Source: Escherichia coli
GTDB taxonomy: Bacteria; Pseudomonadota; Gammaproteobacteria; Enterobacterales; Enterobacteriaceae
Length of the DNA stretch: 64,000 nt
Strand: one strand, 5' to 3'
Assembly: GCF_017348835.2 (NCBI RefSeq)
Contig: NZ_CP071375.1
Shown: positions 29,685-40,329 of the stretch, piece after piece
Layout of the letters: the number at the start of each line of letters is the position of its first letter
Numbering within the stretch: the first letter of the stretch is position 1
The notes under the pieces: model-generated
The model's database searches: none
What the model was told of the DNA's origin: nothing
What the model saw: only the letters and a program-made list of their open reading frames with translations
Translations under genes and position numbers: made by a program

Positions 29685-30956
29685 ATGGAAGACGACTGCG
29701 ACATTATTATTATTGGTGCCGGTATTGCAGGCACCGCTTGTGCGTTACGCTGCGCGCGAGCGGGTTTATCCGTTTTGTTACTGGAACGCGCTGAAATCCC
29801 CGGCAGCAAAAATCTTTCCGGCGGGCGGTTATATACCCATGCACTCGCGGAACTCCTCCCGCAATTTCATCTGACCGCGCCTCTTGAACGACGCATCACT
29901 CACGAAAGCCTTTCCCTGTTAACGCCGGATGGCGCAACGACGTTTTCCAGCTTACAGCCCGGCGGTGAATCCTGGAGTGTATTACGTGCACGGTTCGATC
30001 CGTGGCTGGTTGCCGAAGCCGAAAAAGAAGGTGTCGAATGCATCCCTGGTGCGACGGTGGATGCACTGTATGAAGAAAACGGCAGGGTGTGTGGTGTCAT
30101 TTGTGGTGACGATATTCTCCGCGCCCGTTATGTGGTGCTGGCAGAAGGTGCCAACAGCGTCCTGGCTGAACGTCACGAGTTAGTGACTCGTCCTGCTGGC
30201 GAAGCGATGGCGTTGGGGATCAAAGAAGTGCTGTCGCTGGAAACATCCGCTATTGAAGAACGTTTTCATCTGGAGAATAACGAAGGCGCAGCGTTGCTGT
30301 TCAGTGGCGGAATCTGTGATGACTTTCCCGGCGGCGCATTTCTTTATACTAATCAACAAACGCTCTCGTTAGGGATTGTTTGCCCGCTCTCTTCCCTTAC
30401 GCAAAGCCGTGTTCCGGCAAGCGAGCTGCTGACTCGCTTTAAAGCGCATCCGGCAGTGCGCCCGCTTATCAAAAACACGGAATCACTGGAGTATGGTGCG
30501 CATCTGGTGCCAGAAGGTGGCTTGCACAGTATGCCGGTACAATACGCCGGTAACGGCTGGCTGCTGGTGGGCGATGCGTTACGCAGTTGCGTCAATACCG
30601 GAATCTCCGTGCGCGGCATGGATATGGCGCTGACTGGCGCACAGGCGGCGGCACAAACGCTGATAAGCGCCTGCCAGCACCGCGAGCCGCAAAATCTGTT
30701 TCCGCTTTATCATCACAACGTAGAGCGCAGCCTGCTGTGGGATGTTCTACAGCGTTATCAGCATGTTCCGGCGCTTTTGCAACGCCCTGGCTGGTATCGG
30801 GCGTGGCCTGCGTTAATGCAGGATATTTCCCGCGATTTATGGGATCAGGGTGATAAACCTGTTCCACCGCTGCGCCAATTATTCTGGCGTCATTTACATC
30901 GTCACGGCCTGTGGCATCTGGCGGGCGATTTTATCAGGAGTCTGCGATGTCTGTAG
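29685..30956 (+). CDS. ygcN: FixC-like FAD-dependent oxidoreductase (ETF-quinone oxidoreductase family)
   Basis: Rossmann motif IIIIGAGIAGTACAL; start taken at MEDDCD. Confidence 0.85.
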   Translation: MEDDCDIIIIGAGIAGTACALRCARAGLSVLLLERAEIPGSKNLSGGRLYTHALAELLPQFHLTAPLERRITHESLSLLTPDGATTFSSLQPGGESWSVLRARFDPWLVAEAEKEGVECIPGATVDALYEENGRVCGVICGDDILRARYVVLAEGANSVLAERHELVTRPAGEAMALGIKEVLSLETSAIEERFHLENNEGAALLFSGGICDDFPGGAFLYTNQQTLSLGIVCPLSSLTQSRVPASELLTRFKAHPAVRPLIKNTESLEYGAHLVPEGGLHSMPVQYAGNGWLLVGDALRSCVNTGISVRGMDMALTGAQAAAQTLISACQHREPQNLFPLYHHNVERSLLWDVLQRYQHVPALLQRPGWYRAWPALMQDISRDLWDQGDKPVPPLRQLFWRHLHRHGLWHLAGDFIRSLRCL

Positions 30957-31207
30957 CCCGTAATCTCTGGCGCGTTGCTGATGCGCCACACATTGTTCCG
31001 GCTGACTCCGTTGAGCGCCAGACGGTACAACGGTTGATTAATGCCTGTCCGGCAGGTCTTTTTTCGCTCACACCGGAAGGTGACTTACGCGTTGATTATC
31101 ACGGCTGCCTGGAGTGTGGCACCTGCCGTCTGCTGTGCGACGAAAAAACACTACAACAGTGGCGCTATCCGCCTTCCGGATTCGGCATCACCTACCGCTT
31201 TGGATAA
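30947..31207 (+). CDS. ygcO: FixX-like ferredoxin
   Basis: 86 aa with CLECGTCRLLC cysteine cluster. Confidence 0.8.
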   Translation: MSVARNLWRVADAPHIVPADSVERQTVQRLINACPAGLFSLTPEGDLRVDYHGCLECGTCRLLCDEKTLQQWRYPPSGFGITYRFG

Positions 31208-31223
31208 ATAATAAGGATAATTT

Positions 31224-37619: not shown

Positions 37620-38824
37620 ATGCAACACAACTCATATCGCCGTTGGATAACCCTCGCGATAATTAGTTTTAGCGGCGGCGTTAGTTTCGACCTGGCTTAT
37701 TTACGTTATATTTATCAAATTCCCATGGCGAAATTTATGGGATTCAGCAATACCGAGATAGGTTTAATAATGAGTACCTTTGGTATTGCGGCTATTATTC
37801 TTTATGCCCCCAGCGGCGTTATTGCCGATAAATTTTCACACCGCAAAATGATTACTTCCGCGATGATCATTACCGGATTACTGGGTCTGTTAATGGCAAC
37901 GTATCCACCGCTGTGGGTAATGCTCTGTATTCAGGTCGCCTTTGCGATAACAACGATTTTAATGCTGTGGTCGGTGTCGATTAAAGCCGCATCGTTGCTT
38001 GGCGATCATAGCGAGCAAGGGAAAATTATGGGCTGGATGGAAGGGCTGCGCGGCGTCGGTGTAATGTCGCTGGCGGTGTTTACCATGTGGGTCTTTTCTC
38101 GCTTTGCACCGGATGACAGCGCCAGCCTGAAAACGGTCATAATTATCTACAGTGTGGTTTACATCTTGTTGGGGATTCTGTGCTGGTTTTTTGTTAGCGA
38201 TAACAACAACCTGTGCAGTGCCAATAACGAAGAAATTTTGGTGTCTTCACCATCTACGCCATTCTGAGTTACTCCACCAACTATCTGACCGAAATGTATG
38301 GCATGTCGCTGGTGGCGGCGAGCTACATGGGGATTGTGATCAACAAAATCTTCCGCGCGCTGTGCGGCCCACTTGGCGGCATTATCACCACCTACAGTAA
38401 AGTGAAATCCCCTACCCGCGTGATCCAAATCCTTTCCGTACTCGGCCTGCTGGCGTTAACTGCCCTGCTCGTCACGAACTCTAACCCGCAATCGGTCGCG
38501 ATGGGGATTGGCCTGATTTTACTGCTGGGATTCACCTGTTACGCCTCACGCGGGCTGTATTGGGCCTGCCCTGGCGAAGCAAGAACACCGTCTTACATTA
38601 TGGGCACCACGGTAGGTATTTGTTCGGTGATAGGATTCCTGCCGGATGTCTTCGTTTACCCAATTATCGGCCACTGGCAAGACACCCTGCCCGCAGCAGA
38701 AGCCTACCGCAATATGTGGCTGATGGGCATGGCGGCGCTCGGCATGGTCATCGTCTTTACCTTTTTGCTGTTCCAAAAAATTCGTACTGCTGATATCGCC
38801 CCCACAACGGCTAACAGCAAGTAA
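37620..38824 (+). pseudogene. yqcE: MFS transporter yqcE split into two frames (candidate frameshift or small deletion)
   Basis: ORF 37620-38267 ends ...NNEEILVSSPSTPF*. A second frame is open from about 38231 (NFGVFTIYAILSYSTNYLTEMYGMSLVAAS...) to 38824. Both halves are MFS-like; the break lies near 38228-38240. Confidence 0.6.
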
Positions 38825-38850
38825 GCCAGAAAAATTACAGGAGAAAAATC

Positions 38851-40329
38851 ATGTCGAAGAAATACATCATAGGGATTGATGGCGGAAGTCAGAGCACAAA
38901 AGTGGTGATGTACGATCTGGAAGGTAACGTGGTTTGCGAAGGCAAAGGTTTATTGCAGCCGATGCACACGCCAGATGCCGATACCGCAGAACATCCTGAC
39001 GACGATTTATGGGCATCATTATGTTTTGCCGGTCACGATTTGATGAGTCAGTTTGCCGGGAATAAAGAAGATATTGTCGGTATTGGTCTGGGATCCATCC
39101 GTTGCTGCCGTGCGTTATTGAAAGCCGATGGCACGCCAGCTGCGCCATTGATTAGCTGGCAGGATGCACGCGTAACGCGTCCCTACGAACACACTAATCC
39201 TGACGTGGCCTATGTCACCTCTTTTTCGGGTTATCTGACGCATCGCTTAACCGGCGAGTTTAAAGACAATATCGCCAACTATTTTGGTCAGTGGCCGGTG
39301 GATTATAAGACCTGGGCATGGAGCGAAGATGCTGCGGTAATGGAGAAGTTTAATATCCCCCGTCATATGCTGTTTGATGTGCAAATGCCTGGCACCGTCC
39401 TCGGACATATCACACCACAAGCCGCACTGGCGACACATTTCCCGGCAGGACTGCCGGTTGTTTGTACCACCAGTGATAAACCGGTAGAAGCTCTGGGGGC
39501 CGGATTACTGGATGATGAAACTGCGGTAATTTCTCTTGGCACTTACATCGCATTGATGATGAACGGCAAAGCACTGCCGAAAGATCCGGTGGCGTACTGG
39601 CCGATTATGTCTTCTATTCCGCAAACATTGCTGTATGAAGGTTACGGTATTCGCAAAGGCATGTGGACGGTGAGCTGGCTGCGCGACATGTTAGGCGAGT
39701 CGTTAATTCAGGATGCCAGGGCGCAGGATCTTTCACCGGAAGATTTACTCAACAAGAAAGCCTCTAGTGTGCCACCTGGCTGTAATGGGCTGATGACGGT
39801 GCTGGACTGGCTGACCAACCCGTGGGGACCCTACAAACGTGGGATTATGATCGGCTTTGATTCCAGCATGGATTACGCATGGATATATCGTTCGATACTG
39901 GAAAGCGTGGCGCTGACGCTGAAGAACAATTACGACAATATGTGTAATGAAATGAATCACTTTGCAAAGCATGTGATCATTACTGGCGGCGGTTCGAACA
40001 GCGATCTGTTTATGCAAATTTTTGCCGACGTGTTCAACCTTCCGGCACGCCGTAACGCCATTAACGGTTGTGCAAGTCTGGGGGCAGCGATCAATACGGC
40101 GGTAGGTCTTGGGCTATACCCGGATTACGCAACGGCTGTCGACAAAATGGTTCGCGTGAAAGATATCTTTATACCGATTGAGAGCAATGCCAAACGCTAC
40201 GACGCGATGAATAAAGGCATTTTCAAAGACCTAACCAAACATACTGATGTGATCCTGAAAAAATCGTATGAAGTGATGCATGGGGAATTGGGGAATGCGG
40301 ATTCGATCCAGAGCTGGTCGAATGCGTAA
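38851..40329 (+). CDS. ygcE: FGGY-family carbohydrate kinase
   Basis: 492 aa; N-terminal GIDGGSQSTK motif. Confidence 0.85.
   Translation: MSKKYIIGIDGGSQSTKVVMYDLEGNVVCEGKGLLQPMHTPDADTAEHPDDDLWASLCFAGHDLMSQFAGNKEDIVGIGLGSIRCCRALLKADGTPAAPLISWQDARVTRPYEHTNPDVAYVTSFSGYLTHRLTGEFKDNIANYFGQWPVDYKTWAWSEDAAVMEKFNIPRHMLFDVQMPGTVLGHITPQAALATHFPAGLPVVCTTSDKPVEALGAGLLDDETAVISLGTYIALMMNGKALPKDPVAYWPIMSSIPQTLLYEGYGIRKGMWTVSWLRDMLGESLIQDARAQDLSPEDLLNKKASSVPPGCNGLMTVLDWLTNPWGPYKRGIMIGFDSSMDYAWIYRSILESVALTLKNNYDNMCNEMNHFAKHVIITGGGSNSDLFMQIFADVFNLPARRNAINGCASLGAAINTAVGLGLYPDYATAVDKMVRVKDIFIPIESNAKRYDAMNKGIFKDLTKHTDVILKKSYEVMHGELGNADSIQSWSNA

Follow-up and report, generated by a model that had tools for sequence, protein, structure and literature searches.

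The ten genes ygcN to ygcE of Escherichia coli, at positions 29685-40329 (10,645 bp) of the 64,000-nucleotide stretch analyzed here (hereafter the window), are proposed to form a catabolic module that is inducible and controlled in two layers, with the pathway set out below; as a whole, this explanation seems to us about evenly balanced between right and wrong. Sequence evidence supports the regulatory mechanism well; the chemistry and the substrate are inferred. The analysis adds a gene core that crosses phyla, predicted active-site residues of the alkyl-dihydroxyacetone-phosphate synthase (AGPS) type in YgcU, a putative twofold leader-RNA switch paired with YgcP, a pair of CRP sites (one of them putative), and a likely link to quaternary amines at the regulon level. 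GlpP-type antitermination and flavoenzyme catabolism linked to electron-transfer flavoprotein (ETF) are known kinds of system; there is a moderate chance that new pathway chemistry is hidden in this one.

For the first layer of control, CRP would act at two sites in the ygcW/yqcE intergenic region, each about 41 nt from the start of one of two divergent leaders, which would fit class II activation. For the second layer, each transcript opens with a conserved leader of about 65 nt that by default folds into a very stable intrinsic terminator, and pairing of its 5' AGUUACY with RGUAACU can yield a weak antiterminator. YgcP, encoded in a third and leader-less unit (ygcNOP), would stabilize this antiterminator on binding a phosphorylated intermediate of the pathway, by analogy with GlpP of Bacillus subtilis, which does likewise with glycerol-3-phosphate. 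The pathway would begin with uptake of a small hydroxylated compound, via YgcS or YqcE in Enterobacterales and via BCCT or OpuA-like systems elsewhere; YgcW (a short-chain dehydrogenase/reductase, SDR) and YgcE (an FGGY-family kinase), in either order, would convert it to a 1-substituted keto-phosphate resembling dihydroxyacetone phosphate (DHAP); and flavin attack by YgcU at the substituted carbon next to the ketone would release the substituent and a product at the level of triose-phosphate. In E. coli, the electrons would pass from YgcU via YgcR/YgcQ and YgcN/YgcO to quinone. The substrate would be a compound of the hydroxylated quaternary-ammonium or betaine type, one end of which is glycerol-like.

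The window from 29685 to 40329 is 100% identical to the E. coli strains PE164 and F2_81. In the RefSeq annotation of the identical strain, exactly the ten named genes fall within this interval, and with their neighbors the order is queD, ygcN-ygcO-ygcP (plus strand), ygcQ-ygcR-ygcS-ygcU-ygcW (minus strand), yqcE-ygcE (plus strand), CRISPR array, queE; this annotation and the calls of open reading frames (ORFs) bear out the ten genes and their coordinates as given in a preliminary description of the window. The genes lie in three transcription units (ygcNOP, ygcWUSRQ and yqcE-ygcE), not in one. The region was matched in 5,418 of 5,426 complete E. coli genomes (over at least 80% of its length in 5,060), always on the chromosome. 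Among 80 species-representative loci, those of E. coli-type Enterobacterales show the full gene set again, so the grouping is not a matter of chance.

These 80 loci, one per species, were supplemented by six contigs, their ORFs were called and clustered, and counts are given for the 85 loci in which YgcU was called. YgcW is encoded in 79 of them, YgcE in 73, YgcQ (EtfA) in 59, YgcR (EtfB) in 57 and YgcP in 55; the core of the module is YgcW, YgcE, YgcU and YgcP, usually with the EtfBA pair YgcR/YgcQ, and it spans several phyla. The genes for YgcS, YgcN and YgcO are confined to Enterobacterales (ygcN to E. coli-type loci), and YqcE-like carriers occur also in Photobacterium, actinomycetes and one Eubacterium. 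In most loci outside the enterobacteria ygcR directly follows ygcU, and ygcQ adjoins ygcU-ygcR in 59 loci. YgcU (34992-36446, minus strand) is the most conserved protein of the module, with 83-94% identity across Enterobacterales and 65-75% identity to its counterparts in Sporomusa, halophilic Bacilli, Clostridia, Desulfobacterota, SAR324, Photobacterium and Actinomycetes. In the comparison of E. coli with Citrobacter, ygcU differs by 193 synonymous and 34 nonsynonymous codons and ygcP by 84 and 7 (96% identical protein), and synonymous differences far outnumber nonsynonymous ones also in ygcW, ygcE and ygcS; judged by these codon counts, the core genes are under strong purifying selection. 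Two loci carry taxonomy labels that are almost certainly the result of contamination or mis-binning in public assemblies: L009 (Planctomycetota metagenome-assembled genome [MAG] JADFMM010000147.1), with a YgcU 100% identical to that of E. coli, and L032 (Chryseobacterium sp. 18061, CACSKA010000005.1), with an 88% identical YgcU and full enterobacterial synteny.

The leader RNA of the ygcW operon (37325-37392, minus strand) is a predicted terminator/antiterminator. Its antiterminator strand AGUUACC lies at about 37390-37384, followed by the terminator stem (37374-37333) and a U9 tract; in a terminator scan, a 19-bp hairpin with nine U was found at 37374-37324 (minus strand), ending 23 nt before the ygcW start codon (37301). 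The same element is present upstream of ygcW in Enterobacterales, Photobacterium, Halobacillus, Thalassobacillus, Virgibacillus, Geosporobacter, Dethiosulfatibacter and Bacillota MAGs. The leader consensus reads AGUUACUAGAG-N4/5-GAGAAAAGUAACUUCC-loop-GGAAG..GCUUUUCUC-U8, and RGUAACU within the terminator's 5' arm is a possible pairing partner for its 5' AGUUACY. For the E. coli ygcW leader, the terminator was calculated at -34.2 kcal/mol (z -6.1) and the antiterminator alone at -6.7 kcal/mol, no better than shuffled sequence; since the terminator is far more stable than the antiterminator, termination is the expected default, and a factor, presumably a protein, would be needed for read-through.

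A covariance model of the leader (R1), used after a strict hairpin finder had missed imperfect terminators, was searched over 1.18 Mb and gave 76 hits at E<1e-4. The ygcW leader scored 80.8 bits (E 2.6e-13), and a second copy of the same motif was detected as the leader of the yqcE-ygcE operon (37531-37595, plus strand; 53.7 bits, E 1e-7), 25 nt before yqcE; this RNA folds into an imperfect hairpin with a U8 tract (-22.3 kcal/mol, z -3.7). A leader copy precedes yqcE in every searched Enterobacterales locus that has yqcE, and no copy was found with R1 before ygcN.

Both helices were examined in an alignment of 28 leader sequences, with the pairing partner slid by 1-3 columns as a control. In the antiterminator helix (7 pairs), 99% of the cells were paired (control, 18-56%) and three pairs had changed on both sides; in the lower terminator helix (8 pairs), 100% were paired (control, 62-85%) and two pairs had changed on both sides. 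Alignment column 29 covaries both with column 9, its antiterminator partner, and with column 63, its terminator partner, as U·A·U in most leader sequences and as C·G·C in the E. coli clade, which is the three-way pattern expected of mutually exclusive structures. With about four independent events behind the compensatory changes, the covariation support for the two predicted leader helices is good but not overwhelming.

The genes that follow the 76 hits are ygcW in 36 cases, yqcE-type MFS genes in 25, BCCT transporter genes in five, ygcU in four (internal leaders in Clostridia), and an OpuA-like permease gene and an MttB-family methyltransferase gene in one case each, the latter directly behind its leader copy. 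For the remaining four hits, no gene was called or the family was unlabelled; by contig annotation, two of the uncalled hits precede genes for a BCCT protein (L002) and for a YqcE-like MFS carrier (L004), and in L088 the unlabelled family corresponds to ygcW. With a strict DNA pattern searched over public metagenomes, with no protein seed, five contigs were hit, and all five hits are ygcW leaders in ygc-type clusters. Rfam 15 gave no match with E up to 1 at 37325-37392 or at 37531-37595, and the leader, found only in ygc-type clusters and having no Rfam entry, is a candidate for a new RNA family. In three loci of Clostridia (L067, 9850-9911; L068, 9828-9912; L073, 8715-8797), an extra leader lies inside the operon between ygcE and ygcU, which would give the AGPS-like enzyme and the ETF an antitermination checkpoint of their own.

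The proposed protein partner of both leaders, YgcP (31224-31799, plus strand), is a GlpP-family RNA-binding antiterminator: it matches Pfam PF04309 (G3P_antiterm) over the full model (E 1.6e-62) and, in the PDB, the GlpP structure 3KTS (E 1.2e-27) and 1VKF (E 8e-15). Leader motif and ygcP occur together in 39 loci and are both absent from 17, with the motif alone in three and ygcP alone in two (Fisher p = 3e-10, without phylogenetic correction). By analogy with the GlpP system, YgcP is the predicted regulator of the two leaders.

Between the leaders lies CRP site 1 (37426-37441; TGTGATCGTAATCACA); no other perfect TGTGA-N6-TCACA is present in the 64 kb of the window, where 0.06 would be expected by chance. 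This site was bound by CRP in chromatin immunoprecipitation (ChIP) in enterotoxigenic E. coli (ETEC), where it is listed as ygcW/yqcE (PMC4287617), and it was predicted with high rank by PhyloScan. The first base of the ygcW leader lies 41.5 nt from the center of site 1; that of the yqcE leader lies, as measured on the sequence, about 40.5 nt from the center of the CRP-like site 2 (37483-37498; CGTGATTACTCTCACA, one mismatch). Site 2 is a putative CRP site, and the spacing suggests two back-to-back class II CRP promoters. The preliminary description had taken the ten genes as one coherent module. What stands of this is the coherent module, and the co-regulation that was named there as a test is positively indicated by the same leader RNA on both divergent operons and the flanking CRP sites, one of them CRP-bound in ETEC; what does not stand is the single unit, since there are three, and an intact yqcE, which is frameshifted in this strain.

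A profile of ten YgcU orthologues matched mammalian AGPS best in the PDB (E 4.7e-55, in two stretches), followed by glycolate oxidase (2e-36), with further matches to LctD and D-lactate dehydrogenase; the domains PF01565 (FAD_binding_4) and PF02913 (FAD-oxidase_C) of YgcU are found also in all of the homologues listed. Arg419 of AGPS aligns with R262 of YgcU (the position that differs in the Arg419His mutant entry 4bc7), Tyr578 with Y398 (the position that differs in the Tyr578Phe mutant entry 4bca), and the His615-617 segment GGSLSHHHGVGK with GGSMVHHHGIGK, i.e. H438-H440 of YgcU. R262, Y398 and H438-440 are invariant in alignment A1 (10 YgcU sequences, 5 phyla). A second, GlcD-type oxidase, encoded after etfA in 15 loci of anaerobes, has x-E-H-G-x-G-K where YgcU has HHH. 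The E-H-G motif carries the Glu-His metal site of D-lactate and D-2-hydroxyglutarate dehydrogenases. An AlphaFold model of YgcU (from a 10-sequence alignment) reached a predicted local distance difference test score (pLDDT) of 66, with active-site loops below 50, and was used for ranking folds alone, not for analysis of the pocket; with this low-confidence model, the top 30 Foldseek matches were AGPS chains (E about 1e-25, template-modeling [TM] score 0.65-0.72). By its aligned residues, YgcU is AGPS-like in the active site and not only in fold, and its probable substrate is a 1-substituted DHAP-like keto-phosphate, with attack at the substituted carbon next to the ketone. As judged from its sequence and gene context, YgcU is nonetheless not to be filed as an AGPS orthologue: it has 484 residues versus 658, the alignment begins at AGPS residue 158-180, the N-terminal region is absent, and the adjacent ETF genes argue for a net redox reaction.

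In animal ether-lipid metabolism, alkylglycerol kinase, the SDR acyl/alkyl-DHAP reductase and AGPS link alkylglycerol, alkyl-glycerol-3-phosphate and alkyl-DHAP. An FGGY kinase and an SDR would be exactly the two activities needed to form a 1-substituted DHAP-like compound from a 1-substituted 1,2-diol. YgcE (38851-40329, plus strand) can be assigned to its family fold only: NCBIfam gave partial matches, with XylB best (142 bits, cut-off 380), followed by LsrK (139, cut-off 528) and GlpK (99, cut-off 590), and with GntK also far below its cut-off, nor was the cut-off reached for AraB, FucK or RhaB, and the PDB gave LsrK (E 9e-30) and then glycerol kinases. YgcW (36516-37301, minus strand) is an SDR oxidoreductase that scored 349.9 bits with NCBIfam KduD NF005390 (cut-off 369) and 276 with TIGR01832 (cut-off 338.9), and its best PDB match is 2-deoxy-D-gluconate 3-dehydrogenase (E 2.5e-58); by these scores, it is a close paralogue of KduD and not KduD itself. 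YgcS (33561-34970, minus strand), an MFS transporter, stays below the cut-off of every NCBIfam model (aromatic-acid symporter, 182 bits; sugar porter, 143; cation-transport 2A0119, 138). A 9-bp GC-rich hairpin at 34929-34950 (minus strand), between ygcU and ygcS, lies within the N-terminal extension of the RefSeq ygcS (start 34970, 469 aa); it may serve between the two cistrons as an attenuator or stabilizer, and the real start of ygcS may be the downstream methionine of MNTSPV..., the annotated start codon being uncertain. The family assignments of the preliminary description hold against NCBIfam, Pfam and PDB profile matches; none of the ten proteins reaches a curated NCBIfam equivalog cut-off, and so no known specificity can be assigned to any of the ten.

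A hint at the substrate comes from the company of the core in other phyla. Outside the Enterobacterales, three kinds of transporter were found: BCCT proteins in 14 loci, none of which reaches the cut-off of a glycine betaine, choline or carnitine subfamily, OsmF/OpuAC-type ABC systems in six loci, and YqcE-type MFS carriers. MttB-family methyltransferases adjoin the core in eight loci, some with corrinoid and pterin-binding partners. Relatives of MttB demethylate quaternary amines. From these associations, a hydroxylated quaternary-ammonium or betaine-type compound seems indicated for those phyla at least; the compound used by E. coli may differ upstream of the shared keto-phosphate intermediate. 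As a matter of speculation, deacylated betaine-lipid head groups, a dihydroxypropyl-onium compound or glycerophosphodiesters may be named as candidates, and no work was found in the searched literature on how betaine-lipid head groups or a dihydroxypropyl-trimethylammonium compound are catabolized. Choline, carnitine and glycerophosphocholine were set aside as substrates for want of a testable step-by-step fit. In two Bacillota MAGs (L076, L079), an operon beside the core encodes an OsmF-like ABC transporter, a proline-racemase/hydroxyproline-epimerase-like protein, a PanB-like protein and MttB, downstream of a leader copy in L079, and may indicate which betaine is used there. In the ETF-less Erwinia/Serratia-type clusters and a SAR324 MAG (L038, L043, L049, L052, L054), the core is accompanied by genes for an aldo-keto reductase, related to L-glyceraldehyde-3-phosphate/methylglyoxal reductases, and for a homologue of formaldehyde-activating enzyme (Fae-like; 134.9 bits, above its cut-off), and in L053 and L055 by the aldo-keto reductase only; these genes hint at formaldehyde or 2-oxo-aldehyde products, though no firm scheme could be made with them. 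One Bacillus locus has an extra aspartase-like lyase, an aldehyde dehydrogenase and an alcohol dehydrogenase.

In its furthest extension, the YgcE/YgcW/YgcU route would be ether-lipid salvage and biosynthesis in reverse, with an alkylglycerol-type kinase, oxidation of a 1-substituted glycerol-3-phosphate to a 1-substituted DHAP and AGPS-type expulsion of the substituent, and would serve in at least five phyla to strip the glycerol-like end from hydroxylated quaternary-ammonium or betaine compounds (deacylated betaine-lipid head groups, dihydroxypropyl-onium compounds), under a new, phylum-spanning and protein-dependent RNA switch that also governs BCCT, OpuA-like and MttB genes; in this full form we consider the idea unlikely to hold.

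A number of observations weigh against the proposed mechanism. The compensatory changes in the leader trace to only about four independent events, and the transcription start sites used for the CRP spacing are inferred ones. D-lactate dehydrogenases score structurally almost as well as AGPS for the YgcU model of pLDDT 66. AGPS is redox-neutral, yet ETF genes usually follow ygcU (about 16 loci lack them), and YgcU chemistry would therefore not be simply AGPS-like. A sugar-acid substrate would suit YgcW, given its likeness to dehydrogenases of sugar acids (KduD, gluconate 5-dehydrogenase). The cluster of E. coli has MFS transporters and not BCCT, OpuA or MttB, so that the quaternary-amine link is indirect for this organism.

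On a plain reading of the preliminary description, the substrate would be a neutral polyol or sugar acid, imported by MFS carriers and phosphorylated by YgcE, with YgcU as an ordinary alcohol or hydroxy-acid dehydrogenase in the manner of GlpK/GlpD or LctBCD, ETF as the link to quinone, and YgcW for a second, sugar-type oxidoreduction. Not only is YgcW closest to KduD and gluconate 5-dehydrogenase; YgcE has its partial matches among xylulokinase, gluconokinase and glycerol kinase, the matches of YgcU include glycolate oxidase, LctD and D-lactate dehydrogenase as well, the order ygcU-etfB-etfA mirrors that of LctBCD-type complexes, and the carriers of the E. coli cluster are of the MFS only. 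However, YgcU has His-His-His in place of Glu-His together with the AGPS Arg and Tyr, the BCCT, OpuA-like and MttB genes in other phyla are not typical for neutral sugars, and no protein attains any equivalog cut-off; on this evidence, a neutral substrate is rather improbable. For the same reasons, i.e. the AGPS features of YgcU and the BCCT/OpuA-like transporters and MttB of other phyla, the polyol or hydroxy-acid of the preliminary description is probably too generic.

In the proposed module, the electrons from YgcU would leave through an ETF branch that is itself divergent. YgcR (32804-33583, minus strand), a divergent ETF beta subunit, has weak NCBIfam EtfB matches (31-44 bits), and YgcQ (31947-32807, minus strand), a divergent ETF alpha subunit, has weak EtfA/FixB matches (64-75 bits); their orthologues in other phyla carry Pfam ETF and ETF_alpha, respectively. 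YgcN (29685-30956, plus strand), a FixC-like ETF:quinone oxidoreductase (ETF-QO) with flavin adenine dinucleotide (FAD), scored 377 bits with PRK10015 and 358 with FixC (cut-off 610), both below cut-off, and the FixX-like ferredoxin YgcO (30947-31207, plus strand; 10-nt overlap with ygcN) scored 82.7 bits with FixX (cut-off 166). All four FixABCX/ETF-QO domain types are present in the cluster with every score below the equivalog cut-off, and by these scores YgcN, YgcO, YgcQ and YgcR are paralogues and not FixABCX itself. Identity between E. coli and Citrobacter (L018, L014) is 62% for YgcQ, 72% for YgcR and 75% for YgcN versus 93-96% for YgcU, YgcW and YgcP; this several-fold faster evolution suggests relaxed or shifting constraint on the electron-transfer branch. 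ETF genes are absent from about 16 loci with full flanks, all of aerobes or facultative organisms (Erwinia, Pantoea, Serratia proteamaculans, Halobacillus, Virgibacillus, Thalassobacillus, Alkalihalobacillus, SAR324 and Prauserella), and because it is dispensable in so many lineages, ETF coupling is an accessory of the core and not its definition. The uptake, phosphorylation and ETF-coupled oxidation foreseen in the preliminary description are right in outline and keep their parts in E. coli, with transporters, FGGY kinase and ETF/ETF-QO branch all present, but not the ETF as an essential element.

The same branch could in principle run in reverse, with quinol or low-potential electrons passed via YgcN/YgcO and YgcQ/YgcR to YgcU, which would reduce a substrate, as has been proposed for FixABCX with CaiA in carnitine respiration; the module would then be an anaerobic electron sink and not a pathway for a carbon source. 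The other Fix-like set of E. coli serves quaternary-amine reduction, YgcN/YgcO and YgcQ/YgcR are FixCX-like and FixAB-like, and versions of the cluster with ETF are found mainly in anaerobes and facultative anaerobes, with strict aerobes lacking it. A kinase and control by CRP, though, typify carbon catabolism, many lineages have a core that works without ETF, and we know of no reductase with the fold of vanillyl-alcohol oxidase (VAO) and AGPS, so that only a small chance is left for a reductive role.

The second MFS transporter gene, yqcE (37620-38824, plus strand), is a pseudogene in this strain: a deletion of 73 bp after 38235, as seen against the intact gene (425 aa) of strain DSM 103246, causes a frameshift and leaves ORFs at 37620-38267 and 38294-38824, and RefSeq marks yqcE as frameshifted in the identical strain. 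Only PE164 and F2_81, pig isolates that are 100% identical, exceed 99% identity to the window, and they are the sole carriers of its allele; intact YqcE has a weak match to the D-galactonate transporter family (65 bits). That the whole cluster is cryptic in E. coli, i.e. silenced by very strong leader terminators, with decay begun and no present function, would agree with this deletion, with the terminator of -34 kcal/mol, with the lack of a phenotype or substrate in the searched literature, and with the fast evolution of the ETF (YgcQ at 62% identity to Citrobacter), but is very improbable given the near-universal match among E. coli genomes, a yqcE allele restricted to two genomes, the excess of synonymous over nonsynonymous changes in ygcP, ygcW, ygcU, ygcE and ygcS, and leaders and CRP sites that are conserved with compensatory changes.

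A full-text search of the literature yielded no study of a substrate or regulator for the ygcN-ygcE cluster, in line with the preliminary description, by which the cluster lacked an assigned substrate. In a study of enterohemorrhagic E. coli, ygcU was examined solely as a candidate D-serine deaminase, with negative outcome. The 'ygcO' of a review on the nitrogen-related phosphotransferase system (PTS-Ntr) is a misspelt ycgO and was rejected as ygc literature, and a proteomics paper on quaternary amines in Citrobacter was set aside, as it concerns fix/cai and not ygc.

Three further features were noted in and around the cluster. At 31826-31899, between the convergent ygcP and ygcQ, the naRNA4 model matches both strands (27.6 and 24.9 bits, well under the gathering score); the element is probably a palindrome of the repetitive extragenic palindromic/bacterial interspersed mosaic element (REP/BIME) type at convergent operon ends. 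By the RefSeq record of the identical strain, a CRISPR repeat array lies directly downstream of ygcE (window about 40967-41301), and a truncated integrase/insertion-sequence fragment lies upstream of cysH (window about 23685-24337).

The genes ygcN to ygcE belong to the core genome of the best-studied bacterium and are still without a function. The ygcW leader offers a ready-made reporter for an inducer search, and without its terminator the pathway should become open to phenotype screens; the intermediate worth synthesizing can be predicted from YgcU's residues of the AGPS type. If the quaternary-amine link is true, the module would add a new route by which gut and marine bacteria turn over osmolytes and precursors of trimethylamine, and it would give AGPS-type flavin chemistry its first role in catabolism. 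The leader, as a candidate RNA family, would have a GlpP-type protein partner in Gram-negative bacteria.

Among known systems, AGPS is the nearest relative of YgcU by sequence and fold match, with Arg419, Tyr578 and His615-617 kept and with FAD_binding_4 and FAD-oxidase_C in both. In contrast to AGPS, which has an N-terminal domain and a long-chain hydrophobic tunnel and performs a redox-neutral acyl/alkyl exchange on DHAP, YgcU is a soluble bacterial protein that lacks the N-terminal 160-180 or so residues and does not share this definition; its place in a catabolic operon with kinase, SDR and ETF would imply net oxidation and small polar substrates. With LctBCD and FixABCX, the cluster shares a gene for a VAO-fold flavoenzyme followed by etfB-etfA, to which E. 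coli adds FixC/FixX-like partners; unlike the LctBCD and glycolate enzymes, YgcU is without the Glu-His motif, YgcQ is without an N-terminal ferredoxin domain, the ETF of E. coli is highly divergent (31-75 bits), and many orthologous clusters are without ETF. In the choline pathway of Eubacterium limosum, the kinase MthK must phosphorylate choline before the MttB-type MthB accepts phosphocholine (PMC12155760), i.e. a quaternary amino-alcohol is phosphorylated and passed to an MttB-family enzyme, and in Bacillota and Desulfobacterota a ygc-like core adjoins MttB or shares a leader with it; however, the kinase there is choline-kinase-like and here of the FGGY family, there is no SDR or AGPS-like step there, and E. 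coli has no MttB.

The closest parallel to the control of the module is GlpP of B. subtilis, which activates three promoters (glpD, glpFK, glpTQ), each with core promoter, GlpP site and inherent terminator in the 5' untranslated region (UTR) (PMC9604022). YgcP is of the same PF04309 family, and the layout is the same, with a promoter, then a 5'-UTR binding site and intrinsic terminator, several target operons and catabolite control, a likeness in the described layout of the glp leaders. Both leaders of the ygc cluster have the intrinsic terminator of hairpin and U-run that marks the 5' leaders of GlpP targets. The targets differ in not being glp genes, catabolite control is through CRP and not CcpA, and the effector of YgcP is unlikely to be plain glycerol-3-phosphate.

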